From: Colwellia sp. RE-S-Sl-9
GTDB taxonomy: Bacteria > Pseudomonadota > Gammaproteobacteria > Enterobacterales > Alteromonadaceae
Reading direction: 5' to 3' (one strand)
Length of the DNA: 64,000 nt
NCBI GenBank assembly: GCA_048296855.1
Contig: CP182631.1
The notes under the pieces were generated by a model. That model had not been told where the DNA came from. It was given only the letters and a program-made list of their open reading frames with translations, and ran no database searches. Shown here one piece after another: positions 4,207 to 46,144 of the stretch. Position 1 is the stretch's first letter; every line of letters starts with the position of its first letter. The position numbers and the translations under genes were made by a program.

Positions 4207-5787
4207 CTAACTAAATAACAGCGGGATTGATAAACAAATAGCGATCATCACAAAAAAGTAAGCCACTAAAATAACGATATCTTTTTTTGTTAAAATAGCA
4301 GGAGTATCAGCTAAAGAAGTTAATGATGGGTTATAAGCCATACGCTCTGTTTTATTAAAAAGTAAAATTCCATATGCAACAACACAAGTCACAATTAACC
4401 CAACCAAGTTCCACCAAAACCAAAACAATTCAGGCACGCATAACCAGAGGAAAATATTAAATGCTACCCCCGAAAGAAGTCCAATATTAATCTGTAAAGC
4501 ACATAAACGTTTATCAAAAACAGCCAATAAGAAAATGGCTAAAATAGGTCCATAAAAAACAGAGCCCACTTTATTTATAGCTTCAATCACGGTTGCGGCG
4601 ATATCACCTGCATACAGAGAAAGTGTTAAAGTAACCACTCCCCATATAATCGACGTATATTTCGCGTATTTCATATACGTTTCATCGTCAGGCTTCTTAC
4701 CAGAAATACGACAATAATCCTCTACCGTAACCGCTGATAATGAATTAATAGTTGAACTTAATGACGACATTGCCGCAGCTAAAATAGCCACAATTAAAAT
4801 ACCTATCATGCCATGAGGAAGATAGTTAATAATAAACACAGGCATCATCATATCGCTTTTATCTTGCGGTATTAACTCAGCAAAACTTGCATCAGTTAAA
4901 GCTAACGTACCAATAATTAAGCCTGAAAAACAATAAAGTAAAGTAACAGGAAAGCGTAAAAAGCCATTCGCCATCATCATTTTTTTAAGTTGGCTGGGAT
5001 CTTTTGCCGAAAGTGCACGTTGGGTTTGAGTTTGGTCACAACCGTAATAAGAGGCATACAAAACGATACCGCCGAATACCATAGGTAAAAAACCAAAGCC
5101 ATCACCTTCCACACCATAGGATGAGAAATTAATCGCCTGTAAACGAGATTGATCTACGTTTTCCAATAAACTACTAATACCACCGAGATGACTTAAGCCA
5201 AAATAGATACAAGCAACCGTACCTAATACGATAATAATCATTTGAATCGCATCACCATATACAACGGCTTTCATTCCACCCTGAAGTGAATATAACAGAG
5301 TGATAACACCTACCAATACAATAGACTGCCATAATGTTATGCCCATAGTAGCAATAAGAATAAGTGACACAGCATAAATCATGATACCGGTAGAAAAAGC
5401 ACGGCTAAATTGAAAAACAAAACTGATAACCAATCGGGAAGAACGCCCAAACCGTTGCTCTAGATAGTCGTAAATACTAACAACCCCCGAACGATACAAA
5501 ACGGGTAATACAGTAGATAAAACCAAAATCATAGCTAGTGGAACAGCTAATTCGTAAGACAACCACTGCATTCCACCACCTTCTCGAAGTCCAACAAACG
5601 CAGGTGCAGATACAAAACTAATCGCCGAAAGTTGTGTTGCCATTACTGACAACGTTAGAGGCTTCCAGCCTAGTGTTCTACCACCTAAGAAATAATCAGA
5701 TTTAGTTGATTGTCCCCTAAGTTTGAATCCCATATAAACAAGTAGGAAAAGATAAACAGCAATAATGCCATAATCAAGAATATTCAT
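4207..5787 (-). CDS. sodium:solute symporter (SSS) family transporter
   Basis: 526 aa, about 13 predicted TM helices, SSS-family signature regions. Confidence 0.8.
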   Translation of the reverse strand: MNILDYGIIAVYLFLLVYMGFKLRGQSTKSDYFLGGRTLGWKPLTLSVMATQLSAISFVSAPAFVGLREGGGMQWLSYELAVPLAMILVLSTVLPVLYRSGVVSIYDYLEQRFGRSSRLVISFVFQFSRAFSTGIMIYAVSLILIATMGITLWQSIVLVGVITLLYSLQGGMKAVVYGDAIQMIIIVLGTVACIYFGLSHLGGISSLLENVDQSRLQAINFSSYGVEGDGFGFLPMVFGGIVLYASYYGCDQTQTQRALSAKDPSQLKKMMMANGFLRFPVTLLYCFSGLIIGTLALTDASFAELIPQDKSDMMMPVFIINYLPHGMIGILIVAILAAAMSSLSSTINSLSAVTVEDYCRISGKKPDDETYMKYAKYTSIIWGVVTLTLSLYAGDIAATVIEAINKVGSVFYGPILAIFLLAVFDKRLCALQINIGLLSGVAFNIFLWLCVPELFWFWWNLVGLIVTCVVAYGILLFNKTERMAYNPSLTSLADTPAILTKKDIVILVAYFFVMIAICLSIPLLFS

Positions 5788-5901
5788 TGAAGTAACAGCC
5801 TTAGCCCAAATTTAGTGATTTAAGCAAGAATAAAATATAGTTATATGCTTTTACGCTGTGTAAATTACATCGGGTATTTTTTACATAACGTATAACTTTA
5901 T

Positions 5902-5938
5902 GAAAAAGGCAATACTTTTATTGGTATTGCCTTTTATT
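5902..5938. terminator. bidirectional intrinsic terminator downstream of the TonB-dependent receptor gene
   Basis: 10-bp perfect stem AAGGCAATAC / GTATTGCCTT with an 8-nt loop. It is flanked by an A-run upstream and a T-run downstream. Confidence 0.65.
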
Positions 5939-5956
5939 GGTATAACTTAATATTGA

Positions 5957-8437: not shown

Positions 8438-8729
8438 TTCTTACTTCCCCGTATAACATGTTGATATTTAATTGTTTTAAAATTCATGTCCAGTTATTAA
8501 TAAACAAAATGTTTGCAGTTAACTCAATTTAATATAGTTCATTTCACGATAAATTCTATCTTAGATTTTAGTTAACCTATTTTTTGCTTGTTTACTAATT
8601 ACTCACTACAGTAAAACATATAGTTTTTTTCATTTCAACCCAAAATAGGTTTTATTTATCTTGATATCGAGTTCGATTTAATGATTTAATACCCATAACG
8701 AGTTATTTATATTTAGAGAGAGTATAAAA

Positions 8730-9998
8730 ATGACAGATAAAAATGCATTAATAGAGCAAGCAAAAAATATTTTAAAACGGAACGATGTAGACGGTTACAC
8801 AGTGCCTACACATGACTTATATCCCTTTCAGTGGAATTGGGATGCCGCTATTACCGCCTTAGGATGGATGAAATTTGATGAAAGCCGTGCATGGCTAGAA
8901 ATAGAAATGCTATTAAAAGGTCAATGGGATAATGGCATGGTGCCACATATTATTTTTCATAAGCCTGTAGATACCTATTTCCCAGGACCAGATGTTTGGG
9001 GGGTTAAAAATGAGATCCCAACAACGGCAATATCACAACCTCCTGTACTTGTTAGTATAGTTAAAATTATGGTTGAGCAAGCAACTGACAAAGCCCTAGC
9101 TGAAAGCAAGTTAGCTGAAATGTTACCTAAACTTATTGCCTATCATCAATGGTGGTACAACGACCGAGATCCCGAAAACACAGGCCTTGTTGTGAGCTAT
9201 CATCCATGGGAATCGGGTATGGATAACAGCCCAGCTTGGGATGAAAGTTTAGCTGCCGTACCTCCGGTAAACTATACCTATAAACGTAAAGATCTCGATC
9301 ATGTTGATTCAGACGAACGACCTCATGCAGAACAGTATGACCGCTACCTTTACCTTGTTGATTTTTTCAAAGAATCAAACTTTGACAGTGAAATCATTTA
9401 TAAAAATTGTCCATATAAAGTCAATGACTTAGGTATCATTACAATACTACACAAAGCCACTAAAGATCTTATTTCTCTTTGTAAAAAATCAAACTCAAAC
9501 GAGCAAGAAGTGACTTGGTTTAATGAGCAATTGGCATTAACAGAAAAAGGGATTAATACCCTTTGGAGCAATGAACATAACAGCTTCTTGAATAAAGATG
9601 TTATCACTCAAAAATTATCTCCTGTGTTAACCACCGGAACCATGCTCGTTATTTATGCTGAACTTGCTTCAACCGAACAAATGAATGTTCTGAAGCCTTT
9701 ATTAAATGACTGGTTAAACGAAACTAAATATTGTATGTCTTCAACCTATGCTAAATGTGAAGCGTTTGAGCCACAAAGATATTGGCGCGGTCCAGTATGG
9801 TTACATATTAACTGGATGATCGCATTAGGCGCTGACAGCTATGGCTTAACCGAAGAAAGCGCACAATTAAAAGCAGAATCAGAAGAGCTATTAGTAGAGT
9901 TTGGTTACTTCGAATATTTCAATAGTAAAACAGGTGTAGGCTGTGGCGGTGACGATTTTTCGTGGACTGCAGCAATCGCATTACATTGGTTTTTATAA
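8730..9998 (+). CDS. GH63-like (alpha/alpha)6 glycoside hydrolase, mannosylglycerate/glucosylglycerate hydrolase-type
   Basis: 422 aa, the size of the catalytic domain only. It carries a 'YHPWESGMDNSP' block typical of GH63/MGH/GgH enzymes and has a good RBS. Confidence 0.65.
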   Translation: MTDKNALIEQAKNILKRNDVDGYTVPTHDLYPFQWNWDAAITALGWMKFDESRAWLEIEMLLKGQWDNGMVPHIIFHKPVDTYFPGPDVWGVKNEIPTTAISQPPVLVSIVKIMVEQATDKALAESKLAEMLPKLIAYHQWWYNDRDPENTGLVVSYHPWESGMDNSPAWDESLAAVPPVNYTYKRKDLDHVDSDERPHAEQYDRYLYLVDFFKESNFDSEIIYKNCPYKVNDLGIITILHKATKDLISLCKKSNSNEQEVTWFNEQLALTEKGINTLWSNEHNSFLNKDVITQKLSPVLTTGTMLVIYAELASTEQMNVLKPLLNDWLNETKYCMSSTYAKCEAFEPQRYWRGPVWLHINWMIALGADSYGLTEESAQLKAESEELLVEFGYFEYFNSKTGVGCGGDDFSWTAAIALHWFL

Positions 9999-10019
9999 AG
10001 TATAAAGAGAGATAGACTA

Positions 10020-11012
10020 ATGAAATCAGTCATTTGTTTTGGTGAAGCCCTTATCGATTTTTTAAATACTAATCGATTTGAAGAAAAGCCTTTATGGTTA
10101 AATGAGTTTCGACAATACCCCGGCGGCGCGCCAGCAAATGTTGCTGTAGCCATAGCAAGGTTAGGTGGAACATCTTTATTTGCAGGACAAGTAGGTAAAG
10201 ACAGTTTCGGTGATTTTTTAGAGCAAGCACTTACTTGTTATCAAGTAGACACTCGATTAATGAGCCGTCACCCCACTGCAAAAACAGCACTTGCGTTTGT
10301 TACACTCGATGAAGAAGGTGATAGAAGTTTTACCTTTTTCAGAGAAGCTACAGCTGACTTATTGTTTAAACCTTCTCAAGTAGATGAAAACTGGTTTACT
10401 CACTCTTCTATCTTTCATTTTTGTAGTAATACGTTAACCAATGCAGATATTACCGAAACCACACAATTTGCAGTAACTATGGCGAAAACAAAAGGACTAA
10501 CCATTAGTTTCGATGTTAATTTACGCCATAATTTATGGCTAAATGAATCGGTAAACATTGAACGTGTTAATGCCTTAGCTGAACAGGCTCATGTATTAAA
10601 ATACTCAAAAGACGAATTAGATTTCCTCGCCCAAGGAAAGCAAAAAGCTTATATCAACAAATTAATCACCCAAGGTGTAATGCTGGTGCTTGTAACTGAT
10701 GGCCCTGATACCATTCATTACTATAGTAGTACTTGTGCTGGAACGGTTAATCCACCATGTGTAAATGCTGTAGATACTACCGCAGGTGGGGATGCCTTTA
10801 TTGGCGGCTTTTTATTTGGTTTAAACAAAATTAGCCAAACAAGCTCAACTAAACAACATCTAACTTCAGTAAACTCAATCATTCCTTTAATCAACTTTGC
10901 AGCAGCTTGTGGTGCGCATGCCGTTACTAAACCCGGCGCATTCCCAGCACTCCCAATATTTGATGATGTATCTTCAAGTTGGCAATTAAACTCATTCGAT
11001 AATAAATCGTAA
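10020..11012 (+). CDS. PfkB-family carbohydrate kinase (fructokinase-like)
   Basis: 330 aa with N-terminal GG motif and C-terminal 'DTTAGGDAFIGG' anion-hole motif of the ribokinase/PfkB family. Confidence 0.85.
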   Translation: MKSVICFGEALIDFLNTNRFEEKPLWLNEFRQYPGGAPANVAVAIARLGGTSLFAGQVGKDSFGDFLEQALTCYQVDTRLMSRHPTAKTALAFVTLDEEGDRSFTFFREATADLLFKPSQVDENWFTHSSIFHFCSNTLTNADITETTQFAVTMAKTKGLTISFDVNLRHNLWLNESVNIERVNALAEQAHVLKYSKDELDFLAQGKQKAYINKLITQGVMLVLVTDGPDTIHYYSSTCAGTVNPPCVNAVDTTAGGDAFIGGFLFGLNKISQTSSTKQHLTSVNSIIPLINFAAACGAHAVTKPGAFPALPIFDDVSSSWQLNSFDNKS

Positions 11013-11027
11013 ATAAAAAGGCCGAAT

Positions 11028-35211: not shown

Positions 35212-37386
35212 ATGTCAGATTCTATTAAAGAAATATCTAAATCACGTCGTCGCTTTTTAAAAGGTAGTGCTGCCAGTCTAGTTATCAGCATGCATCTCCC
35301 TATGTTACTTTCCAATCGTGCTATAGCAAATATAAAAGAAACAAAATTGACTGCGAATGCATTCATTAAAATTTCAGAAGATAATACCGTTACCGTATTA
35401 ATAAAGCATATCGAAGTAGGACAAGGCGCATTTACAGGTTTAGCATCTTTAGCCGCAGATGAAATGGATGCTAGTTGGTCACAAATACGTGCTGAACATG
35501 CACCTGCTAATATAAAACTTTATGCTAACTTGTCTTTTGGAGTTCAAGGTACAGGTGGTTCAACTGGACTTGCCAATAGTTATATGACTATGCGTAAAGC
35601 TGGCGCAACAGCAAAGCAGTGGCTCATAAATGCAGCAGCCAAAAAATGGCAAGTTAATGCTAATGAAATATCCGTACAAAACGGTATTGTTAGCCACCCT
35701 TCTGGAAAACAAGCCAGCTTTGGTGATTTAGTCGCTATAGCAGCAACCCTTTCGGCTCCTACAGAAGAGCCTAAGTTAAAAAATGCCAACCAATTTACAT
35801 TCATTGGTAAAGAGTTACCTAGGTTAGATACCAAAGGAAAAACAACAGGTAGTAGCATATATGGTTTAGATATCCATAAACCTAATATGATAACGGCAGT
35901 TGTCGCTCATCCTCCAGCTTTTGGTGCAACAGTTGCTTCATTCGATGCAACTGAAGCAAAAAAAATTGAAGGCGTGAAAGATGTTAAGGCGATTCCATTT
36001 GGTATTGTGGTATATGCAAACAGTACCTACAACGCTATTAAAGGTCGTAGAGCCTTAAAAATAGAATGGGACTATAGCAAAGCTGAAACCCGTACGAGTA
36101 AAGAACTATTCAAAACATTTAGTACAACGGTATCTAAGCCAGGTATTCAAGTAACCAAAAAAGGTAACGCTGAAGCGGCAGTAACTCAGGCTGATAAAAA
36201 ACTTGAGATTGAACTATCTTTTCCTTATTTAGCTCATGCGGCAATGGAACCATTAAATGCGGTAATGCAATTTAAACGTGGAAAAGTTACGGCTTGGTTT
36301 GGTAGTCAAATCCCCACTTTAGATCAAGGCACTATTGCAAAAGTATTTGGTATAGAACCAAGTAAAGTTGATATTCAAACACAAATCACTGGTGGGAGCT
36401 TTGGCCGCCGTACTCAACCTGACGGAAGTTTTGCAGCAGAAGCGGCTTATGTAACAAAAATGGCTGACGAAGGTGTGCCCGTAAAATTAGTTTGGACAAG
36501 AGAAGACGACATTCAAGGTGGACATTACCGCGCGATGTCAGTACATAAGATGGCTGGTGCACTAGACGAAAAAGGTAAAATAATAGGATGGAAACATAGC
36601 ATTGCGGTTCAATCTATTAGAAAAAATAGTCCTTTTGAAGCACAAATTAAAAACGGTATAGATGAAAGCTCTGTTGAGGGAGCTGAACACATACCATACG
36701 CTTTACCCAACATAGATGTGCAACTGCACAACATGGAAACTGGCGTCCCCGTACTTTGGTGGCGTTCGGTAGGTCACTCCCACACGGGTTATGCCGTTGA
36801 AACAGCGATTGACTTATTATTAGATATGGCAGAAAAAGATCCTATCAAAGGTCGCCTTGAGTTGATGGAAGAAAACTCAAGAGAAGCACAAGTACTAAAA
36901 CATGTTGCTAACATGGCAGAAAAGTCAGGACCTGTACCTAAAGGACGAGCCAGAGGTGTTGCTGTAGTAGAGTCTTTTGGCAGTTATGTAGCTGAAATAG
37001 CTGAAATTTCAAAAGATAACAACGGCATGCCTAAAGTACATCACGTTTGGTGTGCGGTTGACTGCGGAATTGCCGTCAATCCCGATATTGTTAAAGCTCA
37101 AATGCAAGGTGGCATAGGTTTTGGTTTAGATGCTGCGCTTCATGGCGAAATAATTTTAGGTGAGAAAGGAAAAGTAGAACAAAGTAATTTCCATAATTAT
37201 ACAGCCTTACGAATAACAGAAATGCCAGAAATTGATATAGAGATATTACCATCAGACGCCGCACCTACAGGTGTTGGTGAACCAGGCACACCACCAATAG
37301 CACCAGCCGTATCTAATGCGTGGCGCCGTTTAACCGGACAATATGTTACTACACTTCCCTTCAGTAAAGGAACAAAGCTAACTTAG
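35212..37386 (+). CDS. molybdopterin-binding large subunit of an isoquinoline 1-oxidoreductase/aldehyde dehydrogenase (IorB-type) with Tat signal
   Basis: 724 aa with an N-terminal twin-arginine motif 'SRRRFLKG'. The start is 4 nt after the small-subunit stop. Confidence 0.85.
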   Translation: MSDSIKEISKSRRRFLKGSAASLVISMHLPMLLSNRAIANIKETKLTANAFIKISEDNTVTVLIKHIEVGQGAFTGLASLAADEMDASWSQIRAEHAPANIKLYANLSFGVQGTGGSTGLANSYMTMRKAGATAKQWLINAAAKKWQVNANEISVQNGIVSHPSGKQASFGDLVAIAATLSAPTEEPKLKNANQFTFIGKELPRLDTKGKTTGSSIYGLDIHKPNMITAVVAHPPAFGATVASFDATEAKKIEGVKDVKAIPFGIVVYANSTYNAIKGRRALKIEWDYSKAETRTSKELFKTFSTTVSKPGIQVTKKGNAEAAVTQADKKLEIELSFPYLAHAAMEPLNAVMQFKRGKVTAWFGSQIPTLDQGTIAKVFGIEPSKVDIQTQITGGSFGRRTQPDGSFAAEAAYVTKMADEGVPVKLVWTREDDIQGGHYRAMSVHKMAGALDEKGKIIGWKHSIAVQSIRKNSPFEAQIKNGIDESSVEGAEHIPYALPNIDVQLHNMETGVPVLWWRSVGHSHTGYAVETAIDLLLDMAEKDPIKGRLELMEENSREAQVLKHVANMAEKSGPVPKGRARGVAVVESFGSYVAEIAEISKDNNGMPKVHHVWCAVDCGIAVNPDIVKAQMQGGIGFGLDAALHGEIILGEKGKVEQSNFHNYTALRITEMPEIDIEILPSDAAPTGVGEPGTPPIAPAVSNAWRRLTGQYVTTLPFSKGTKLT

Positions 37387-37713: not shown

Positions 37714-38778
37714 ATGAAAAACTATGAATTAAAGCTTAATACAACTCGATGGGTGTTACTCGCAGTAACAATCGCCATGGGTTTATTTGCAATTTTAGAC
37801 CTATCTATTTTACCAACGCCCCTACACGATGAGTACATAACAAGCCGATTTTTGATTCAAGTTCCAACAATGATAGCCCTTCTGTTATCTTCATACTTTG
37901 ACCACTTTAAAAAGCACCGACATAAGCTTTATTTTGTTGTATTAACGACCCTTTCTCTATCGAATATTTGGTTTATAAAACAAGCATGGGTGATAGACAT
38001 GTTTAGTTTTCCTTATGATGGGCTACTCATTTATTCTGTGTTTGCCTTTTTTGTACTTCGGTTAGATTTTAAACTATCAATTTTATATGTACTGTTGTGC
38101 TTTTTAGCTTTGGCCAAACTATTAACTTTATATCCAATTTATGCTGACCTTAACTCAATTTACTTAGGTTTTTATTCTATTGTAAGTTTAATTTGTTTAG
38201 TGGGATTATATACCACTGAAAACTCTTTCAAGCGGGCTGAAGAACTAACAAATAAGCTTGAAGAGCAAAGTCAAACAGACCAACTATCAGGCTTACTTAA
38301 TCGAAGAGCTTATGAAAAAGAAGCATTAAAGTGTTTTACATCTGATGATAAGAATAAGCCAGTCTCTATATTTTTAATCGACATCGACGACTTTAAAAAA
38401 TTTAATGACAAGTTTGGACACCTCGAAGGTGATGTCATCATTAAAACGCAAGCAGATATATTAAAAGAAGTATTTAAAAGAGACCAGGATATTGTTGGTC
38501 GTTATGGCGGAGAAGAATTTATTGTTATAGCACCAAATACCCCTATTACTGAAGCTGAAAAAATGGCAGCTCAAGTAAATAATTTATGGCAAAAGTTTAA
38601 TCAGGAAAATGAAAAATATAGTGATCTTTCTTGTTCAATTGGCTTGGTTAACCTCAAAGATTTGTCAATTAATTGCGATTTAAAATCATTTATTTTACAA
38701 GCAGACAAAGCCCTTTATCTTGCAAAAAACAGTGGTAAAAATTGTTATAAATCGACTGATTATTCGATATCAGAATAA
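37714..38778 (+). CDS. membrane-anchored diguanylate cyclase (GGDEF)
   Basis: 354 aa with an N-terminal polytopic membrane domain (~6 TM helices) and a C-terminal GGDEF domain with active-site 'RYGGEEF'. Confidence 0.85.
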   Translation: MKNYELKLNTTRWVLLAVTIAMGLFAILDLSILPTPLHDEYITSRFLIQVPTMIALLLSSYFDHFKKHRHKLYFVVLTTLSLSNIWFIKQAWVIDMFSFPYDGLLIYSVFAFFVLRLDFKLSILYVLLCFLALAKLLTLYPIYADLNSIYLGFYSIVSLICLVGLYTTENSFKRAEELTNKLEEQSQTDQLSGLLNRRAYEKEALKCFTSDDKNKPVSIFLIDIDDFKKFNDKFGHLEGDVIIKTQADILKEVFKRDQDIVGRYGGEEFIVIAPNTPITEAEKMAAQVNNLWQKFNQENEKYSDLSCSIGLVNLKDLSINCDLKSFILQADKALYLAKNSGKNCYKSTDYSISE

Positions 38779-38814
38779 TGCTATATTTTTTCATTTCCTT
38801 ACACAACATCTATA

Positions 38815-38860
38815 CCGTTACCATTCAAGAGGCTATTTCAGAGCGCTTGAATGGTAACGG
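38815..38860 (+). terminator. strong hairpin after the GGDEF gene
   Basis: 15-bp perfect stem CCGTTACCATTCAAG / CTTGAATGGTAACGG with a 16-nt loop. Confidence 0.5.
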
Positions 38861-39244
38861 GTATATAACTATTATCGCATTTTAAGGCATAAATTGAGAC
38901 CATAAAATAAGACAATTACTCTTGATTTAGTTTTTATTCTAAAATTAGACTACAGTTAGTGATGGCTATAAAATTTAAATATTGTATAAAATAGCCAATA
39001 CCAGTGCAAAAACTGATATAAATAAAAAACGTTTAGTGATATTACTTTTTATTTGCTGAGTATAATTCGAAATTTAACAATCTTTGTTAGGATACAAAGT
39101 TATATAAAATGGATTTTTAAATAGTGCTCTTTTTAAATCCCTCTTATATTCCCCATAATTCTACAATATAAAACTTTTGTTTATATTTCTTATACTACCT
39201 TTTAAGTCATTGATAACTTAATGTAAGTTTATCAAAAACATGGA

Positions 39245-39736
39245 ATGGAATATAAAATGAATAAACAACCTGTCATTCACCCTATTAGTAAAAACTTTGA
39301 AAAACTAAACCAAGATATCTTTGAAACCATGTTCAAGTTATTTGAGCATATAGGTGTCTATTGGAAAAACATGGATAACTCGACCCCCTATCGATCAGAG
39401 CTCTATGTTTTTATGCAAAACCGAATAAATTTATACCCCATTTATCAAGAATATTATAAAACAGCTTACACCACGATTAATCAAATGATTTTAGAAGTAG
39501 GAGCTGAAAATTGTTACGAAATAATATTTACGGATCCTTACGCTAACCTCCCTCCTGTAGATTCAAATTTATCTATTGTTAGACAAAAAGTATCAAACGA
39601 ATTTATTGATTTTCAACTCTCTATTGGTGGATTTAAATCCTTTGGCGCTAAAAATTATCCTGGATATATTGGCGGAGCTTTTATCCCTGGAGAAGCAGTA
39701 CCTTACCGAACTATGGAGAATAACAATGAAATATGA
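39245..39736 (+). CDS. hypothetical small protein, first gene of a coupled three-gene operon
   Basis: 163 aa (or 159 aa from the second ATG at 39257, which has the better RBS). No signal peptide and no recognisable domain. Its stop overlaps the next gene's start. Confidence 0.55.
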   Translation: MEYKMNKQPVIHPISKNFEKLNQDIFETMFKLFEHIGVYWKNMDNSTPYRSELYVFMQNRINLYPIYQEYYKTAYTTINQMILEVGAENCYEIIFTDPYANLPPVDSNLSIVRQKVSNEFIDFQLSIGGFKSFGAKNYPGYIGGAFIPGEAVPYRTMENNNEI

Positions 39737-41339
39737 TCTAGTTATAATAGGCTCTGGGATCGCTGCTACAGCTCTTTCCCATAAGGTATTAGAAAAAAAT
39801 AAAAATGCATCTATTTTAATGTTAGAAGCTGGACAAAAAGTAAAAATGCAAGATGCAGCCCTTTGGCAAGATTACATTGTAAGCGGCAAACTACCCTACT
39901 CTAAATTTAATGATCAAGCATACCCAGAAAGAGATATACCAGGACAAAATCAAAATATTGGAGCAACCGTAGTTCCATTAGCGGGGTCAAGAGTAATGAC
40001 ATATGGAGGATCAACAATACATTGGGGTGGTTGGTCTTTCCGTTTAAAGCCTGAAGATTTTTTAATGAAAACCAATACCAACACAAGTATTGATTGGCCC
40101 ATTGATTACGAGACTCTAGAGCCTTATTACGGACAGGCTGAACACTATATTGGCGTTTCTGGAGATTCAAAGAACTTAAATCCACCACGCTCCACACCTT
40201 ATCCATTTCCTGCGTTTCCATTCACATTTGAAGACAGCAGCATAGCTTCAGCAATAAAATCTCTTAATATGGACTTTTCAAATGTACCTATTGCAAGACA
40301 CGGTATATTAAGTAGCTCAACGTTCAACGCACCTTGTAAAACAACCGGTACATGTAAATATTGTCCTTTTGGTGCTAGGTACGCTGCCACGAATTTTTTA
40401 AATCATATGAGTGATGAAAAAGATTACCCTAATTTAGAAATTCGAATTAACAGCATAGTTAATACCATTGATATGGATACTAAACAAAGAGCAAAAGGAG
40501 TGACTTATTTTGATAAAACAACTAAAAAAACTATGAGTGTATCCGCTAAAATAGTAATTGTGGCTGGTGGAGCTATCGAATCTCCTAAATTATTACAACG
40601 TTCAACATCTGACTTTTGGATAAATGGAATAGGTAATGATGAAGGAAATGTTGGTCGCTACTTTGTTACTCACCCTTACTTTATTTTTAGCGCCAATATC
40701 GCAGAAAATAAATCCCTTAAACAACCAGAAATGAACTTCCCTACACTTTGTAGTCGTCACTACGACAATGAATTTGAACAAAAAAAAGGAAAATTTATAT
40801 TAATACACCCACCTAGTTCACCTCAAATTGATATTGCCACTTTAATGAAAAACGGTAATACGCGAGAAGAAATTGAAGAAAGTATTAGAGGTTCAAACAC
40901 GGTTCAAATACACGGAATGGTGGAAATATTTAGCGAATATAAGAACAACATAACTAACTTACCAGGAGCCAAAAACCAAATAGGTCTACCTCAAACCATT
41001 GTAGATTATTCTCAATCGCCAGAATTTAACGATCGTATGACTTATATTCAATCCAAAGTTGAAGAGATTTTTAAAAAAATGGATGCAAAAATACAAGGAA
41101 AACCAACAATTTCATGGCGAGCGGATCATTCTGCATGTACTTGTAGAATGAGTGAAGACCCCAAAAAAGGTGTTACAGATAAAAACATGAAAATACATGG
41201 CGTTGATAATATATATGTTTGCTCAAATGCTGCATTTACCTCTACGGGTGCAATCAACCCCACATTAACATTAACCGCTTTATCTTTAAGGCTTGGCGAT
41301 CATATAAACACACAACTGGAGGCGTTAGATCATGAATGA
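39726..41339 (+). CDS. GMC-fold FAD-dependent oxidoreductase (choline dehydrogenase/glucose-methanol-choline family-like)
   Basis: 537 aa starting 'MKYDLVIIGSGIAAT' (Rossmann GxGxxG/A). The C-terminal GMC substrate-domain region contains His/Asn active-site-like residues. Start ATG at 39726 overlaps the upstream stop. Confidence 0.7.
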   Translation: MKYDLVIIGSGIAATALSHKVLEKNKNASILMLEAGQKVKMQDAALWQDYIVSGKLPYSKFNDQAYPERDIPGQNQNIGATVVPLAGSRVMTYGGSTIHWGGWSFRLKPEDFLMKTNTNTSIDWPIDYETLEPYYGQAEHYIGVSGDSKNLNPPRSTPYPFPAFPFTFEDSSIASAIKSLNMDFSNVPIARHGILSSSTFNAPCKTTGTCKYCPFGARYAATNFLNHMSDEKDYPNLEIRINSIVNTIDMDTKQRAKGVTYFDKTTKKTMSVSAKIVIVAGGAIESPKLLQRSTSDFWINGIGNDEGNVGRYFVTHPYFIFSANIAENKSLKQPEMNFPTLCSRHYDNEFEQKKGKFILIHPPSSPQIDIATLMKNGNTREEIEESIRGSNTVQIHGMVEIFSEYKNNITNLPGAKNQIGLPQTIVDYSQSPEFNDRMTYIQSKVEEIFKKMDAKIQGKPTISWRADHSACTCRMSEDPKKGVTDKNMKIHGVDNIYVCSNAAFTSTGAINPTLTLTALSLRLGDHINTQLEALDHE

Positions 41340-42807
41340 TTTACAACTTCGCAAACAAGAGTTAATTGATAATTTGCATAAAGCACTGGAATTAGAGTTA
41401 TCAACTATACCGCCTTATTTAACTGCACTTTTAAGTATTAAGCCAAATACTAATAAAAAGTCTGCCGCACTTATTCATAGTGTAGCCATGGAAGAAATGT
41501 TACATATGCTTCTCGTGTGTAACTTAATAGCGAGTATAGGTGGCAAAGTAACCTTTAATAAAAAAAACGTTCCCACTTACCCTCTTACATTAGAATTTAA
41601 GGGGGAAAAATTTAAAGACCGTGAATTTGAGATTAACTTAGAAAAATTCAGCGAATCGGCAATTGACACATTTTTAAAAATAGAAATGCCGACTGAATTT
41701 ATTGGTCGTAAAAAAAGTATGCTGCGTTCATCAGAAATGGAAATTCCGGGTATTACCATTGGTGCATTTTATGAACAGCTAAAGCACCAACTCAATGAAG
41801 CGTGTGATGTATTTTCTGAACCAGAAGTCTTTAGCGGAGATCCTGCCAATCAACTCGGTGAGAACTTTTATTGGAAAGGCGATGGCGAGCCAATTAAAGT
41901 AGTAGATTTAGCATCAGCCCATAAAGCAATAGACCTAATAATAACCCAAGGTGAAGGTTGCTCAGATTCAATTTTTGATTTAGACACTAAATACTTTAAT
42001 CAAAGAGCAGATATAGCACATTACTTTAAATTTAATGAAATAAAGCACCATAGATCATATCAAGAAACGGATACACCAACAGAGCCACCTACTGGTGAAG
42101 CCTTTGATGTTAATTATCACCAAGCTTATCCATTATTAAAAAACCCAACAACACAAAGTTATGAAAACAGCCCTGTACTATCAAGCTTAAACAAGCAATT
42201 TAATAGCAACTATTCAGTTATGCTGTATCAAATTGCTGAAGCGTTTAATGGCTCACCTAATGTGTTGTACACAGCAATAAATAATGGCATGAGAAGCTTA
42301 AGCCCTATTGCACTGCAAATGATGGAAATACCCGTTCCTAACCATGAAAACTACCGTGGCACCCCCTCCTTCGAATGGATAGAACCCGAATTTGATAAAA
42401 AGAGTCAGGTTCAAGAAATATCACTTATTTCAAAATGGCAATTATTAGATGGCTGCCCTCCTGAGTTATATCAAGAGCTAAACAACCTAGCTAATAAAGT
42501 AAAAGAAGAAGCTGGCACATTGATGTACTTAGTACATCTACAATCGGAAAAGCCGCTTAATCAGGAGAGTAAACCTATAATACCCGAGCCTTCAGAAATC
42601 CCCTTAACACAACAAACCGAAGTTATATTTATAGAAATATATAAAGATGCTCAAGCTTTTAGTGATCATGTAACAGGTGAAATTTTTAATACATTCAAAG
42701 ATAAATATTTTAAATATTTCAAGCCTGATCCAATAACAAAAGGCTGGCCATTAACCAAAACAGAATTTTTAACTCGTAGATCTGGTTTTATTAAAAACGG
42801 AATTTGA
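41332..42807 (+). CDS. ferritin-like (ExxH di-metal) domain protein, hypothetical oxygenase/oxidase partner
   Basis: 491 aa. The N-terminal helices 'ALELELSTIPPYLTAL' and 'AMEEMLHMLLV' (E...ExxH) resemble a ferritin-like four-helix-bundle di-iron site. The start overlaps the GMC gene stop by 8 bp. Confidence 0.55.
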   Translation: MNDLQLRKQELIDNLHKALELELSTIPPYLTALLSIKPNTNKKSAALIHSVAMEEMLHMLLVCNLIASIGGKVTFNKKNVPTYPLTLEFKGEKFKDREFEINLEKFSESAIDTFLKIEMPTEFIGRKKSMLRSSEMEIPGITIGAFYEQLKHQLNEACDVFSEPEVFSGDPANQLGENFYWKGDGEPIKVVDLASAHKAIDLIITQGEGCSDSIFDLDTKYFNQRADIAHYFKFNEIKHHRSYQETDTPTEPPTGEAFDVNYHQAYPLLKNPTTQSYENSPVLSSLNKQFNSNYSVMLYQIAEAFNGSPNVLYTAINNGMRSLSPIALQMMEIPVPNHENYRGTPSFEWIEPEFDKKSQVQEISLISKWQLLDGCPPELYQELNNLANKVKEEAGTLMYLVHLQSEKPLNQESKPIIPEPSEIPLTQQTEVIFIEIYKDAQAFSDHVTGEIFNTFKDKYFKYFKPDPITKGWPLTKTEFLTRRSGFIKNGI

Positions 42808-42834: not shown

Positions 42835-42910
42835 AGCCTAAAATAATAGAAAAGGGTAATAACATCGCTGTTGTTACCCTTTTTAATATTCTTTACTTTT
42901 TGCAATCATT
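42835..42910. repeat. hairpin-terminator repeat element, family member A (AAAGGGTAATAACA-tcgc-TGTTGTTACCCTTTTT ...)
   Basis: About 75-80% identical over ~70 bp to the element at 48345-48420. Stem plus T-run. Lies between convergent genes. Confidence 0.65.
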
Positions 42911-43109: not shown

Positions 43110-43667
43110 TTACTTATTTTGACACTTTTGAACTAAATACTTTCTTAACAATATAAAAACACCTAAAGCAAATAATGCGATTGCAGGAGACTCAGGAACC
43201 TCCTGTGCGGCAATTGATTCACCTAAAAAGTTTTGCACATCTAAGTAATCTAAGCTGGTATTTATTGGCGAATTAGTATCCATCAACGCAGTAAAACTAG
43301 CAGTACCTAATTTGAATGAGGTACTTAACTCGTTTTGCCAGTCATCTAAAAACTCAACTTGTAACGTTAACGGTGAAAACCCAAAATCGTCAAAAGCATC
43401 GGTATAGGTACTATTATTGAAAACGTTATTATCAAAAATAAAACCATCAAAAGCTAAATCAGCGTCATTGAATGATAAATCGAATTCCAACCAATATGTT
43501 TCTGAATTTATTGAATTAACAAAAACATCCATCGTAACTATATCATCTTTGTTATATGTAACTTCATCAAAATCAACAATGATTAATGATGCCGTACTAG
43601 CCCATGAAACAAAGAGTGAAATCACGGCAAGGCTTTTTATTAAATTTAACATTATTGAACTCCACAA
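43110..43667 (-). CDS. secreted protein with C-terminal PEP-CTERM-like sorting signal
   Basis: 185 aa with a signal peptide and a C-terminal '...VPESPAIALFALGVFILLRK' (P-E-x-P + TM + basic) motif. Overlaps the upstream gene by 16 bp. Confidence 0.55.
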   Translation of the reverse strand: MWSSIMLNLIKSLAVISLFVSWASTASLIIVDFDEVTYNKDDIVTMDVFVNSINSETYWLEFDLSFNDADLAFDGFIFDNNVFNNSTYTDAFDDFGFSPLTLQVEFLDDWQNELSTSFKLGTASFTALMDTNSPINTSLDYLDVQNFLGESIAAQEVPESPAIALFALGVFILLRKYLVQKCQNK

Positions 43668-46144
43668 CGGCTATATGTACATAAGTTAACTAAGTAACGA
43701 CTGTCTTGACGATTAATCACACCATCATTATTTAAGTCATATACTTGATGTAAATTATGAGTGCCTCGTAATGCAGAGGTAAATGCTCTGACATCCATAG
43801 TATCAACATCTTGATCACCGTCTAAGTCACCTAAAACACCTATGTTCTTATCAAACGGTAAGTGATCAATCTCATCATTAACACCATCGTTATCATCATC
43901 TGAATCAATAAGGTCACCTAAATCATCATTATCAAAGTCGTTATCAATAGTTAATCTTGCAATGCCTTTATCGTATGTTTTGCCATCAGAAGCCGTGAAT
44001 TGTGCATATAAGAAATAAAAGTTTCCTTCAGGAAGCTCGCTGTTAGCTTTTGCTCCCGCCAACGGAATAGAGAGTGTTGAAGTCGCGGTTTGTTCTCCAA
44101 TAACGCTACCGTCAATTACCACTATATCGTTCACCAAACTCCAATCAGAACGAAGTTCGCGTAAAAATACTTTTAAACCGCCAACACCATCTGTAACAAG
44201 GTTACCAGTCCCCGCTTCAACATTAACTTTTACCTGCATAGGTTTAGTCGTTAAATGCGTTGTATTACGGTACTTTGCGTCATCATCAAATGAAAGAGAT
44301 GGTTCTACCGGTGTAGGTTCTGGCTCAACACTTACACAACCTTCACATAACAATTTAAAAGTACGTACGTAGTCATATGATGTAGTACGTTGCTCTTCTG
44401 TACCAGCTTTAACCATTCCACCATCTTCTGGCACTTCATTCCAGTCATAGGTTTCTATTGCCATTTGAATCCACATTTCCTGATCAAATGCAATGGGATG
44501 CACTATGCTGTAAACAAGCTGACCATCTAAGTAAAAGTCGATTTCATTCTGTGATTTCCAGTGAGCGCCATAGATATAATAACGTTCAGTTGTTTTCTTG
44601 CCAGCTGGCACCATTGTAGAATTTTGTCGTCTGTTTTCGTCATTACAACTTGTTTGACGATGAAACATATTTGAATGATAAATATGTTCCCAATCCATTG
44701 CCCAACTGTGAGTCAAACCTTCGTTAACTTTACCGATAGTTTCTTGGATATCAATCTCGAACATTGTCTTACAATCACTATTTTTACTCATTAACCAAAA
44801 CGTTGATGACATTTCTGTTTGGTTAGCTTTCATTTTGGCTTCGTAGTAATAAGATACACCGTCCTTAGGTGCGCTTGTTGGGAAAATAGAACGAATTATT
44901 GCGCCTTTATATTTAAAGTAGGCTTGTTTAAAGTTTCCATTTGCATCTTTATAAGGAGTATCTAACCATTGCGGACCACCTTCTAATTCATCAACGGTAA
45001 TTTTTAAGTTGCCGTCATTAACGCTAACCGTATCTGTAGTAAATAAACCTGGTGCTCTACCTGTCCATAACCAACCGTTTCCTACTGGCTCTACTTGCCA
45101 TTTATCAGCATTAATATTAGCACCTTCAAATTCGTCAGACATGTTATCGATTTTCAGCCAATTCATACCTGGAAAAGCCGGTGTTTGTACCCCTTGGAAA
45201 AACGGAACGTCAGTTATTGCACCAACACTAGCGTTTCTTGGCGCTGAATCTATTTCATCACTCGCACCATCATTATCGTCATCTGTATCAATTGAATCGA
45301 CAATACTGTCACCATCAAAATCACTATCGATATTAATATTTGCGATACTACTGTTATAAACATTTCCATTTGATGAACCAAATTCAGCAAATAAGAAATA
45401 GAAATTTCCGTCAGGAAGTTGATTGCTTGGTACTAAACCATTTAACGGAATCAGAATATTTGAAACGGCTGTTTGCTTACCAATTACACTATCATCGAAA
45501 ACTACAGTGTCTTTTACTAGCTGCCAATTAGATTTTAATTCGCGTAAATAAACTTTAAGACCACCTTTAGTATTATTTACAATATTGCCAGCACCCGCTT
45601 CAACATCAATAGTTACGTTAAGTGAACCTGTATTAGCATAAGTGCTAGTTTTTATATGATCACTTCCTTGAATAGTCAAAGAAGGAGCGACTTGTGCAGC
45701 TTCTATGTTTATACCGGCTACATTTACTGTGTAAGCATTTCCATCTGAAGAGAAAAACTTTACAAATAGGAAGTAAAAGTGCCCATCAGGAAGGTTTGCT
45801 GTTGCTGTTAATCCTTGTAAAGGGATCTCAACATTTGAAGTGCCACTCGTTTTGCCTATTGCTGATGCATCTGAAACAATTGTGTCTTTCACTACAGACC
45901 AATTTGAACGAAGTTCTCTTAAAAAATATTTAACTCCTCCTAATTGGTTCGTAACCGTGTTGTTATCACCAGCATGATAATTCACACTTACAGGTAAAAC
46001 GCTATTGGTTTGATATACGTTTTGCGTATATTGTGTTGCATTGTCAAAAGTTACCGAAGCTGCAGTTTGAGCATTACTCTCAAACGGGAGCCACGACAAA
46101 ACGACGGTCAAAAATATTCCGAACATTGTTATTGTTTTATTCAT
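43652..46144 (-). CDS. secreted multidomain GH16-family glycoside hydrolase with triplicated ~95-aa domain, TSP3-like Ca-binding repeats and dockerin-like C-terminus
   Basis: 830 aa with a signal peptide and the GH16 catalytic motif 'EIDIQE' (E-x-D-x-x-E). A homologous module (…GGLKV[YF]LRELKSNW…LPDGNFYFLFA…) occurs three times. There are two acidic D-x-D-x-D repeats and C-terminal 'DLDGDQDVD ... DLNNDGVINRQD' dockerin-type loops. Confidence 0.7.
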   Translation of the reverse strand: MNKTITMFGIFLTVVLSWLPFESNAQTAASVTFDNATQYTQNVYQTNSVLPVSVNYHAGDNNTVTNQLGGVKYFLRELRSNWSVVKDTIVSDASAIGKTSGTSNVEIPLQGLTATANLPDGHFYFLFVKFFSSDGNAYTVNVAGINIEAAQVAPSLTIQGSDHIKTSTYANTGSLNVTIDVEAGAGNIVNNTKGGLKVYLRELKSNWQLVKDTVVFDDSVIGKQTAVSNILIPLNGLVPSNQLPDGNFYFLFAEFGSSNGNVYNSSIANINIDSDFDGDSIVDSIDTDDDNDGASDEIDSAPRNASVGAITDVPFFQGVQTPAFPGMNWLKIDNMSDEFEGANINADKWQVEPVGNGWLWTGRAPGLFTTDTVSVNDGNLKITVDELEGGPQWLDTPYKDANGNFKQAYFKYKGAIIRSIFPTSAPKDGVSYYYEAKMKANQTEMSSTFWLMSKNSDCKTMFEIDIQETIGKVNEGLTHSWAMDWEHIYHSNMFHRQTSCNDENRRQNSTMVPAGKKTTERYYIYGAHWKSQNEIDFYLDGQLVYSIVHPIAFDQEMWIQMAIETYDWNEVPEDGGMVKAGTEEQRTTSYDYVRTFKLLCEGCVSVEPEPTPVEPSLSFDDDAKYRNTTHLTTKPMQVKVNVEAGTGNLVTDGVGGLKVFLRELRSDWSLVNDIVVIDGSVIGEQTATSTLSIPLAGAKANSELPEGNFYFLYAQFTASDGKTYDKGIARLTIDNDFDNDDLGDLIDSDDDNDGVNDEIDHLPFDKNIGVLGDLDGDQDVDTMDVRAFTSALRGTHNLHQVYDLNNDGVINRQDSRYLVNLCTYSRCGVQ

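Follow-up and report, generated by a model that had tools for sequence, protein, structure and literature searches.

Related enzyme systems

FAD/Fe-S dehydrogenases of the 'direct electron transfer' (DET) type serve in glucose and fructose biosensors. A second background to the locus described here is the ferritin-like domain PF12902, which sits within the violacein, rebeccamycin and staurosporine synthases. To our knowledge the characterised proteins containing this domain (VioB, RebD and StaD) are all haem-dependent coupling enzymes, and no terminal oxidase is among them. Its sole solved member, 3hl1 (CC_0557 of Caulobacter), is a structure of unknown function, and the only open-access paper citing it is a violacein review.

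The closest described complexes are those of fructose dehydrogenase (FDH; 7w2j) and of the Burkholderia FAD-glucose dehydrogenase (BcGDH; 6a2u/8hdd). In BcGDH His105 carries the covalent link to FAD and the ligands of the 3Fe-4S cluster are Cys212/218/222 (PMC6719666). AceDH (GmcA/GmcB) of Methylacidiphilum fumariolicum SolV is a two-gene enzyme made of a small subunit and a GMC protein with covalent FAD. Its Fe-S cluster, placed between the alpha and beta subunits some 11 A away from the flavin, relays electrons to an external partner, and the conserved C-terminus of the small subunit helps to form the cluster site (bioRxiv 10.64898/2026.06.11.731722). A likeness in working principle only is offered by rubrerythrin types including an [FeFe] hydrogenase-rubrerythrin chimera: there a dehydrogenase module is reported to deliver electrons, by way of Fe-S centres, to a di-iron site of the ferritin-like kind that reduces H2O2/O2 (PMC11926857).

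Gene arrangement

The locus lies in a stretch of 64,000 nucleotides from contig CP182631.1 (assembly GCA_048296855.1) of Colwellia sp. RE-S-Sl-9, hereafter the window. A first-pass annotation, made from the sequence alone, had described it as an uncharacterised, translationally coupled three-gene unit. We found no description of the trio in the open-access papers searched, and the three overlapping ORFs (NCBI XPF95914-16), with a terminator at their end, proved real, so that the coupled unit is borne out:

39245-39736, plus strand: ORF1, small subunit, 163 aa, or 159 aa from the NCBI start at 39257; XPF95914.1
39726-41339, plus strand: ORF2, GMC-family FAD dehydrogenase catalytic subunit, ATG at 39726, 537 aa; XPF95915.1
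41332-42807, plus strand: ORF3, ferritin-like PF12902 protein with a probable ABM-fold domain at its C-terminus, 491 aa; XPF95916.1

Reading the junctions base by base, we placed the ORF2 ATG at 39726 and the ORF1 stop codon TGA at 39734-36, an overlap of 11 nt and not the 4-nt ATGA originally reported. The 8-nt overlap between ORF2 and ORF3 (ORF3 ATG at 41332, ORF2 stop TGA at 41337-39) agrees with the 8 bp noted before at 41332-41339. GGAG is found at 39716-19 before the ORF2 start and GGAGG at 41318-22 before the ORF3 start.

The GMC catalytic subunit

The middle gene had been called a GMC flavoprotein, and both GMC domains were indeed matched in ORF2 (PF00732 and PF05199, E 6e-17 and 2e-10, Pfam). 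The best solved relatives, 7w2j_A, 6a2u_B and 8hdd_A, align at E about 1e-46 over residues 2-531, that is over the full length. Judged by its sequence, ORF2 is related along its whole length to the FDH and BcGDH catalytic subunits. Residues at the cofactor sites are as follows:

40020-40022, plus strand: ORF2 His99, aligned with BcGDH His105, to which FAD is covalently attached
40335-40364, plus strand: ORF2 Cys204-x5-Cys210-x2-Cys213-Pro, predicted 3Fe-4S loop, aligned with CCGNNNCMPICP of FDH and BcGDH
41127-41129, plus strand: ORF2 His468, aligned with FDH His1147, the conserved GMC active-site histidine (PDB 8k6j is an entry for the FDH H1147A mutant)

In this loop the second and third Cys stand one residue closer together than in the solved enzymes. 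No tier-1 GMC sequence spanning the region departs from the motif, which is also found in the GMC proteins that accompany Tat-type relatives of ORF1.

The small subunit

ORF1 is helical, and its C-terminal tail is highly conserved. Searches of Pfam, NCBIfam and PDB sequences gave no match, and to this extent the earlier statement that it lacks recognisable features holds; it does not hold for the family, which has members with Tat signals beside the same GMC subtype. A profile search yielded 255 representatives, of which the distant ones measure ~195-200 aa and carry twin-arginine (RR) signals. Relatives of this type directly precede GMC genes that share the same C-x-TTGT-C-x-Y-CP motif in loci L089 and L093 and on the P0263 contig, and in L092 one is located 3 kb upstream of such a gene. 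Inspection of the ORF1 sequence revealed neither an RR motif nor a hydrophobic leader and thus no signal peptide. Since its family has Tat-signal members in front of the same GMC subtype, we regard ORF1 as a signal-less small subunit of the 'hitch-hiker' type. A ferritin-like gene is present in none of the four Tat-bearing contexts and in every Tat-less one: Tat signal and ferritin-like partner exclude each other.

39590-39724, plus strand: conserved C-terminal tail of ORF1, VSNEF..L..GGFK.FGAKNYPGYIGG....PYR, the most conserved part of the family

The tail columns are invariant in alignment A1, and the motif is common to the Tat-bearing relatives. In a stand-alone model of ORF1 the tail is partly disordered, with pLDDT <50 at residues 125-142 of the 159-aa form. 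By analogy with BcGDH, in which the C-terminal loop of the gamma subunit covers the cluster (PMC6719666), the tail is the candidate element for meeting the GMC subunit close to its Fe-S cluster.

We also tried PF12318 (FAD-SLDH small subunit) as a family for ORF1 and rejected it. None of 23 family members gave a Pfam match even with E allowed to reach 10, and comparison with the PF12318-like 'c2' proteins, which match PF12318 weakly themselves (E 2e-4), gave an hhalign probability of 1%. The ORF1 homology search returned no Methylacidiphilum or Methylocella entry.

Compared with FDH and BcGDH, the trio thus shares a homologous GMC subunit with the FAD histidine and with three cysteines aligned to the 3Fe-4S ligands, a small-subunit gene directly upstream and a third gene after the GMC gene, which we propose to encode an electron-accepting metalloprotein here as well. 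It differs in that their small subunit carries a Tat signal, which ORF1 lacks, and in that their multi-haem cytochrome c subunit is replaced by a PF12902 protein. The first-pass annotation had held the trio to be unlike the known three-subunit GMC dehydrogenases; the nearest relatives of ORF2 are, however, precisely their catalytic subunits. GMC homology and the Tat-bearing small-subunit family therefore lead us to consider the trio a derived, signal-less and cytochrome-free form of FDH/BcGDH-type complexes. AceDH is more distinct: it is periplasmic with a Tat signal on GmcB, has a four-Cys CxxCxxCxxxC motif with a [Cu-4Fe-4S] cluster where ORF2 has C-x5-C-x2-C-P, reduces a soluble cytochrome c and is without a ferritin-like partner (bioRxiv 10.64898/2026.06.11.731722). 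The C-terminus of its beta subunit provides a Cu-ligating Met; in the ORF1 tail an Ile stands where some Tat-type relatives have Met.

The ferritin-like protein

ORF3 had been read as a ferritin-like protein with E...ExxH ligands, and a comparison with PF12902 had been proposed. The match is clear (E 8e-56, 189.8 bits with a cut-off of 22.3, profile positions 1-220 of 221), and ORF3 has the fold of 3hl1. Over helices A and B, ORF3 aligns with the E...ExxH pattern of bacterioferritin 1nf4; the correspondence applies to the first half-site, the second half being no canonical ExxH.

41395-42021, plus strand: candidate di-metal ligands of ORF3, Glu22, Glu54/Glu55, His58, Glu118, Glu208 and His230

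These residues and Met56 are invariant across alignment A2 (21 homologues), and Glu/His ligands of the ORF3 type were found in 88-90 of 90 ferritin-like sequences from the loci. The pattern suggests that the four-helix bundle holds a carboxylate/histidine di-metal centre, probably di-iron.

A relation to VioB/RebD-type N-termini had also been raised. There is a weak link to VioB, 45.2 bits on TIGR04492, far below the cut-off of 1250 and confined to profile positions 669-853. With 491 aa against about 1000 aa, ORF3 was also rejected as a synthase of the VioB/RebD/StaD kind.

At least 579 genomic copies of PF12902 were found in one scan. Eight copies with no GMC gene beside them carry two CDGSH [2Fe-2S] domains and one Fer4_19 domain as fusion partners, a combination that occurs in 0/63 GMC-adjacent copies; 18 of 89 copies lack both a neighbouring GMC gene and an Fe-S fusion. 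From the fusions of the GMC-less copies we conclude that the PF12902 domain is habitually wired to Fe-S electron carriers. The fusion proteins, whose domain is about 35% identical to ORF3, are uncharacterised and differ in having the Fe-S carriers fused to the domain instead of supplied by a GMC protein; the combination has been listed among domain combinations (PMC5859297).

A separate domain that had been missed before occupies the C-terminal third of ORF3:

42409-42771, plus strand: probable ABM/Dabb-fold domain of ORF3, roughly residues 360-480

This domain is fused to the ferritin-like protein in the Colwellia-type clade only and elsewhere encoded by a separate adjacent gene; fused or adjacent, it occurs in several lineages but in a minority of loci. 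The ABM fold is typical of cofactor-free oxygenases and quinol monooxygenases, and its presence suggests chemistry on a small molecule.

Conservation of the trio across bacteria

For the loci we abbreviate the small subunit as S, the GMC protein as G and the ferritin-like protein as F. The order S-G-F on the same strand was found in all tier-1 loci with upstream DNA present, and where gene coordinates were called, in five tier-1 loci, the junctions lie between an overlap of 4 nt and a gap of 15 nt. The trio is spread over at least seven phyla, its lineages being Gamma-, Beta- and Alphaproteobacteria, Bacteroidota, Ignavibacteria, Acidobacteriota, Verrucomicrobiota and Gemmatimonadota. Distance matrices of F and G are correlated (r = 0.82, and 0.81 and 0.85 inside the two tiers; Mantel p = 0.001): the GMC proteins and their ferritin-like partners co-diverged. 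The first-pass annotation had considered that missing synteny elsewhere would suggest a chance juxtaposition. Synteny is conserved, and therefore this check does not count against the trio. Identical order and strand with tight junctions, together with the co-divergence, leave a chance meeting of three unrelated genes with practically no probability.

A second, divergent GMC subfamily also adjoins PF12902 genes. It carries the canonical motif C-x5-C-x3-CP and has its own signal-less small subunit with a weak PF12318 match (E 2e-4). In tier-2 loci the pair is located among genes of sugar catabolism, which include GH15 and two xylose-isomerase-like TIM barrels. Within roughly 5-6 kb flanking F no conserved CxxCH (cytochrome c) gene was detected in any locus. 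In three lineages the gene directly upstream, on the same strand, encodes a peroxidase (KatG or a DyP fusion), which is consistent with O2 or H2O2 chemistry. The neighbours of the tier-1 trio differ in every genome, with no conserved extra genes for a second substrate, and no pointer was found to the secondary-metabolite or redox-toxin role guessed at earlier.

Proposed mechanism and alternative explanations

We infer that the three proteins form a complex. ORF2 would oxidise the hydroxyl group of an alcohol, sugar or hydroxy-ketone, these being the candidate substrates, and pass two electrons to the covalent FAD, from which they would leave singly through the surface 3Fe-4S cluster (Cys204/210/213). 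ORF1 would be the small subunit whose tail probably packs on and shields the cluster. ORF3 would take the place of the multi-haem cytochrome c subunit, with its di-metal centre accepting the electrons and most likely handing them to O2 or H2O2 to form water; its C-terminal ABM domain would be an accessory module. Such a complex would be a self-contained substrate:oxygen (or peroxide) oxidoreductase independent of membrane and cytochrome. We give an even chance to this reading, in which the operon encodes a cytoplasmic, soluble, cytochrome-free relative of DET-type FAD dehydrogenases whose Fe-S cluster feeds the ORF3 centre, most likely for the reduction of O2 or H2O2.

The same complex and electron path could also serve a di-iron oxygenase or oxidase in which ORF3 acts on an organic substrate, possibly the product of the GMC subunit. 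The GMC and small subunits would then be its dedicated reductase, and alcohol oxidation would therefore drive a hydroxylation, desaturation or coupling. All evidence for the link from Fe-S cluster to F applies equally here, and the ABM-fold domain fused to or beside F in several lineages and the sharing of PF12902 with VioB, an oxidative coupling enzyme, point in this direction. We nevertheless consider it rather unlikely, as the tier-1 trio is without conserved genes making or using a second substrate and the ABM domain is restricted to a minority of loci. Tight operon linkage is equally typical of enzymes acting in sequence, and the tier-2 pair among sugar-catabolic genes with their xylose-isomerase-like TIM barrels and GH15 would suit a VioA/VioB-style arrangement without electron transfer, in which the GMC protein uses another acceptor and the ferritin-like enzyme converts its reactive carbonyl product. 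This arrangement appears improbable: it leaves unexplained that both F-paired GMC subfamilies are of the Fe-S-bearing type, that F is missing in precisely those contexts whose small subunit bears a Tat signal and that F copies lacking a GMC neighbour are joined to CDGSH and Fer4_19 domains, and it leaves a cytoplasmic Fe-S GMC protein without an identifiable acceptor.

Very improbable in our judgement is a protective ORF3 resembling ferritin/Dps or pseudocatalase, which would sequester iron or clear H2O2 made by an ordinary GMC oxidase and take no electrons from the GMC protein. F is a 350-aa single-chain protein nearest to 3hl1 and not a 150-aa cage subunit, and the Fe-S fusions of its relatives indicate an electron-fed centre. 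Moreover the Fe-S cluster of the GMC protein is the mark of a dehydrogenase that, like BcGDH and AceDH, delivers its electrons to a partner.

Implications

With electron transfer from the Fe-S cluster to ORF3 as the preferred reading, a testable function is gained for PF12902, a family of at least 579 copies with no assigned activity. Going further, PF12902 might represent a new class of Fe-S-fed di-iron terminal oxidase/peroxidase, which together with a 3Fe-4S GMC protein and a signal-less hitch-hiker would make up a soluble, membrane-independent 'water-forming' alcohol/sugar oxidase (FAD to 3Fe-4S to di-iron to O2/H2O2), an undescribed architecture spread by horizontal transfer over many phyla. 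This wider claim is possible though somewhat doubtful; if true, it would suggest a role for the ferritin-like domain in VioB, RebD and StaD. The trio would add a new branch to the biosensor enzyme family, apparently cytoplasmic, soluble and independent of cytochrome and membrane. Expression of such a complex might prove simpler, and its oxidation of the substrate could be linked to O2 with no release of H2O2. The ORF1 family would be a third class of small subunits, and its Tat-bearing and Tat-less forms would offer a natural experiment in which a periplasmic hitch-hiker complex has become cytoplasmic.

Flanking sequences and base composition

The trio is flanked by two AT-rich spacers:

38779-39244, plus strand: upstream non-coding spacer, 466 nt, 25.8% GC, presumably carrying the promoter
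42849-42894, plus strand: intrinsic terminator, a 16-pair hairpin with T-run starting 42 nt past the ORF3 stop codon

The hairpin with its T-run was located at 42849-42884. The downstream spacer measures 302 nt with 26.5% GC, the window mean being 35.8% GC. An 'island-like' context had been suggested earlier, for which base composition gives no support: the trio has 34.9% GC against 35.8 +/- 1.7% for 3.5-kb windows. Promoter-like hexamers are no commoner in the upstream spacer than in shuffled sequence, and no Rfam element was detected in it. The spacer also holds an inverted repeat at 38815-38860, with which the GGDEF gene upstream is probably terminated.

Organization of the operon

The three genes of Colwellia sp. 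RE-S-Sl-9 lie on the plus strand and overlap at both junctions:

39245-39736, plus strand: ORF1, small protein S, 163 aa (XPF95914.1, annotated as hypothetical protein)
39726-41339, plus strand: ORF2, GMC flavoprotein G, 537 aa (XPF95915.1, annotated as GMC oxidoreductase)
41332-42807, plus strand: ORF3, ferritin-like protein F, 491 aa (XPF95916.1, annotated as ferritin-like domain-containing protein)

NCBI lists ORF1 in a 159-aa form with its start at 39257. Base-by-base reading did not bear out the ATGA that the first-pass annotation had placed at the ORF1/ORF2 junction: the overlap is 11 nt (ORF1 TGA at 39734-39736, ORF2 ATG at 39726). The same reading confirmed the 8-nt overlap of ORF2 and ORF3 (TGA at 41337-41339, ATG at 41332). 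GGAG is located 7 nt 5' of the ORF2 ATG and GGAGG 5' of the ORF3 ATG, and a 16-pair hairpin with a trailing T-run lies 42 nt past the ORF3 stop.

The trio is flanked by spacers of 466 nt at 25.8% GC and 302 nt at 26.5% GC. Its own GC content (34.9%) is indistinguishable from that of the window (35.8 +/- 1.7% in 3.5-kb windows), and a genomic island, suggested earlier from this context, was therefore rejected on composition. A search of Rfam for a riboswitch or leader upstream returned chance-level matches only, all under gathering scores (Histone3, E 0.006, on the minus strand within the ORF1 coding region, and mir-451, E 0.88), and promoter-like hexamers upstream were no more frequent than in shuffled sequence.

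Upstream of the trio, 35212-37386 (plus strand) encodes a molybdopterin-binding subunit of the aldehyde-oxidase/isoquinoline-oxidoreductase type with a Tat-like SRRRFLKG leader, and 37714-38778 (plus strand) a membrane GGDEF diguanylate cyclase. The inverted repeat at 38815-38860 (perfect over 15 nt, loop of 16 nt, no T-run), 37 nt past the stop of the GGDEF gene, is probably a terminator or a protein-binding site. On the minus strand, 43110-43667 encodes a protein of 185 aa that ends in a PEP-CTERM-like anchor, and 43652-46144 a secreted protein of 830 aa that contains three internal repeats and Asp-rich dockerin-like or calcium-binding motifs; neither matched Pfam at E up to 0.01.

ORF2 falls within an Fe-S GMC lineage

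ORF2 matches the Pfam domains GMC_oxred_N and GMC_oxred_C. Among solved structures it comes closest, at E about 1e-46 over the whole length, to the catalytic subunits of Gluconobacter fructose dehydrogenase (FDH) and Burkholderia cepacia FAD-glucose dehydrogenase (BcGDH). In residue-level alignments His99 of ORF2 falls on BcGDH His105, the covalent FAD attachment site (PMC6719666), and the loop PC204KTTGTC210KYC213PFGARY falls on CCGNNNCMPICPIGAMY of FDH/BcGDH. Cys212, Cys218 and Cys222 of BcGDH ligate a surface 3Fe-4S cluster, which relays electrons from FAD to the cytochrome subunit, while Cys213 forms a dispensable disulfide with the small subunit (PMC6719666). ORF2 keeps all three ligand cysteines, with the spacing before the last one shorter by one residue, and has lysine at the disulfide position. 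The active-site histidine is retained as His468. The N-terminus opens directly with the Rossmann motif and lacks a signal peptide.

We place ORF2 in the FDH/BcGDH lineage, with which it has fold, Cys loop and FAD histidine in common. The trio, however, includes neither a Tat-bearing small subunit nor a cytochrome c subunit. With three defining FDH/BcGDH features present and two missing, it is therefore a variant and not a member. Its nearest two-subunit analogue, the acetol dehydrogenase GmcA/GmcB (AceDH) of Methylacidiphilum fumariolicum SolV (2026 preprint, bioRxiv 10.64898/2026.06.11.731722), differs from it in cluster motif, location and acceptor.

The ferritin-like protein

Judged by its Pfam match, ORF3 is a clear member of PF12902 ('Ferritin-like'), which covers residues 15-238 (E 8e-56). 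Its sole solved sequence relative is 3hl1, Caulobacter CC_0557, to which no function is assigned. Glu22, Glu54/55, His58, Glu118, Glu208 and His230 do not vary across 21 aligned sequences (alignment A2), and the candidate Glu/His ligands are kept in 88-90 of 90 F sequences from genomic loci. The first half-site (E...E-M-x-H) aligned with the ferroxidase-centre helices of bacterioferritin. ORF3 is not a VioB.

Within the E-M-x-H ligand motif, Met56 (window 41497-41499) is also invariant in the 21-sequence alignment, at a position which we take to be that of the haem-ligating Met52 of bacterioferritin. Since the PF12902-containing enzymes VioB, RebD and StaD are also haem proteins, F might hold a haem at a dimer interface besides two metal ions.

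Residues about 360-480 of ORF3 form a separate domain of the dimeric alpha+beta-barrel (ABM/Dabb) fold that matches LsrG, YgiN, Rv0793, PA3566 and SnoaB and scores slightly below the Pfam cut-off by sequence. Only six F homologues carry it as a fusion, and HMM searches located stand-alone ABM-like ORFs adjoining G/F genes at six loci (L010, L019, L023, L027, L031, L044); the domain is therefore a recurrent optional fourth component.

Two tiers of genomic loci

A scan with one genome per species gave at least 579 homologues of F, and 80 of the loci were retrieved. Together with six others, 86 loci were analyzed by ORF calling and HMM searches, and these fall into two tiers. In tier 1, where F shares about 41% identity or more with that of the window, all loci with upstream DNA show the order S-G-F, and G is orthologous to ORF2 (E 1e-169 to 1e-233). 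This tier comprises Zobellella, Chitinimonas, Pseudomonas amygdali, Paraburkholderia, Bradyrhizobium, Agaribacter, Cyclobacteriaceae, Ignavibacteria, Acidobacteriota, Chthoniobacteraceae, Longimicrobium and Thermoanaerobaculia; the trio is also found in Magnetofaba and several metagenome contigs. Five loci have called gene coordinates, and in these, successive genes of the trio overlap by up to 4 nt or are separated by up to 15 nt. Since the neighbours of the trio vary in every locus, we regard it as an autonomous unit.

GGDEF genes adjoin the trio in several further tier-1 loci. Peroxidase genes lie directly 5' of S on the same strand in L001/L002:5599-7863, L003:3894-7394, L004:2923-6423 and L014:1298-4846, encoding KatG in Agaribacter marinus and, in two further lineages, an unusual fusion protein of 1166 aa (Dyp_perox_C plus PFL-like).

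In tier 2 (F 33-41% identical), F follows a GMC of another subfamily, which matches ORF2 at E 1e-17 to 1e-33 and bears the canonical C-x5-C-x3-CP loop. In at least 25 of these loci a 150-165-aa protein is encoded before G or after F. Its weak match to PF12318 (FAD-sorbitol dehydrogenase small subunit) begins only at profile position 39, indicating a small subunit without the signal part. Tier-2 loci are embedded in genes of sugar catabolism, which encode two xylose-isomerase-like TIM barrels, GH15 and large GH-like proteins.

Distances of F and G correlate strongly: r is 0.82 for both tiers together, and 0.81 and 0.85 for each tier taken alone (Mantel p = 0.001). No conserved CxxCH (cytochrome c) gene was found near any locus examined.

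In Pseudoalteromonas luteoviolacea (L076:3188-10653) GH15, a 3Fe-4S-type GMC, PF12902, a signal-less PF12318-like small subunit and two TIM barrels are clustered, the latter xylose-isomerase-like and one of them IolE-like at its N-terminus. The layout is repeated in Vibrio bivalvicida (L034) and partly in L042, L058, L061, L073, L080 and L081; some clusters of this type add a TPP enzyme and a protein that on inspection of the sequence only is metallo-beta-lactamase-like. They look like a cytoplasmic glycoside/cyclitol oxidation pathway of the 3-keto type.

PF12902 copies joined to Fe-S domains

We classed 89 F copies by neighbour or fusion. The gene lies directly 3' of a GMC gene in 63; in eight, F continues at its C-terminus as a fusion with two CDGSH [2Fe-2S] domains and one Fer4_19 4Fe-4S domain, and none of these eight adjoins a GMC. 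The remaining 18, of a 345-aa actinobacterial type or on truncated contigs, have neither. GMC adjacency and Fe-S fusion are mutually exclusive, and PF12902 is therefore regularly given an Fe-S carrier, either in cis or via the GMC. The combination of PF12902, CDGSH and Fer4_19 is listed in a survey of CDGSH proteins, with its function unassigned there (PMC5859297).

The small subunit

Searches of Pfam, NCBIfam and PDB sequences with ORF1 as a single sequence, as a 23-member profile and with each member singly gave no match. ORF1 is modelled as a bundle of helices. Conservation peaks in the C-terminal tail, VSNEF..L..GGFK.FGAKNYPGYIGG....PYR, a good part of which is disordered in the stand-alone model.

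An exhaustive profile search extended the S family to 255 representatives, whose remoter members are about 195-200 aa long with N-terminal twin-arginine signals (such as KRRDFI, DRRKII and ERRRFL). Their context was readable in four cases. In three (L089, L093 and the P0263 contig) the Tat-type S lies directly 5' of a GMC gene that shares the C-x-TTGT-C-x-Y-CP loop, followed on the P0263 contig by a gene pair of PF12318 small subunit and GMC; in Dyella (L092) a GMC gene is found 3 kb downstream. The F gene is absent from all four and present in every Tat-less context. Because Tat-bearing relatives precede GMC genes with the same loop, we assign S to the small subunits of Fe-S GMC enzymes. On sequence grounds it is a third, so far un-modelled class of Fe-S GMC dehydrogenase small subunit, of which the window's copy is the signal-less form.

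Homology of the S family to the PF12318-like small subunits of tier 2 was not supported (hhalign probability 1%), and neither was the likeness in a 'GAK..PG[YF].G' motif as a sign of it. A homology search toward AceDH GmcB and the Methylocella acetol dehydrogenase returned nothing but unnamed proteins and hypothetical proteins (Dyella, Halioxenophilus). Elsewhere (P0162, P0204, P0231) the S domain follows a phosphoesterase in one fusion protein (671 aa) and a SnoaL-like domain in another (339 aa); P0204 (504 aa, metagenome) looks like a collapsed chimera of S, GMC C-terminus and F.

Proposed electron path

In the most likely reading, the three genes specify a cytoplasmic form of the heterotrimeric FAD dehydrogenase complexes that works without a cytochrome. 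A substrate hydroxyl would be oxidized at the covalently bound FAD of ORF2 and electrons would leave through the 3Fe-4S cluster, which ORF1 would cap by analogy to the gamma subunit of BcGDH and to GmcB of AceDH. The predicted di-metal centre of ORF3 would serve as the electron sink. As final acceptor we favour O2 or H2O2, following a rubrerythrin-like logic, because the trio stands on its own in unrelated surroundings, its vicinity holds no conserved gene for another acceptor, and three lineages have a peroxidase gene (KatG or the DyP-PFL-like fusion) directly upstream. In the main alternative, at which the ABM domain hints, ORF3 would spend the electrons on oxygenating an organic substrate. 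It is less likely that G and F are purely sequential enzymes like VioA and VioB, since this would leave the Fe-S features and the PF12902 fusions unexplained.

Full-text searches of the open-access literature found no description of a GMC-PF12902 system. A dehydrogenase complex of the proposed kind gives the orphan PF12902 metalloprotein family a testable role and points to a soluble branch of enzymes important for bioelectrochemistry.

Variant modules

Tandem G-F-G-F modules with one small-subunit gene at one end occur in actinobacterial and related metagenome-assembled genomes (L030:4959-11044, L038:3414-9472, L039:about 5000-11023, L063:2031-8044). In Acidobacteriota and Thermoanaerobaculia a second GMC with the tier-2-type C-x5-C-x3-CP loop flanks S-G-F (L016:2449-4488, L018:2071-4110, L019:5823-8272, L022:8085-10319) and may share the single F subunit; the second GMC of L019 comes with a PF12318-like small subunit of its own and two ABM-like domains in tandem. 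Decay of the module is apparently under way in Agaribacter flavus (L020:5657-6983), where S is a stop-to-stop fragment of ~90 aa and G is reduced to ~356 aa next to an intact F. In a Chthoniobacteraceae MAG (L017:6971-10351) F is part of a 1127-aa ORF, joined to Endonuclease_1 and calcineurin-like phosphoesterase domains, which is either an odd fusion or an assembly/frame artefact.

DUF952 (PF06108) may be an additional component. Its genes (L001/L002:11332-11949, L020:8064-8678, L021:3796-4536) lie directly 3' of F in Agaribacter and an Alteromonadaceae MAG. In the F-less periplasmic version (L089:8285-9224) DUF952 is present directly 3' of the GMC gene in two copies, the second with a Tat-like MERRKFML leader.
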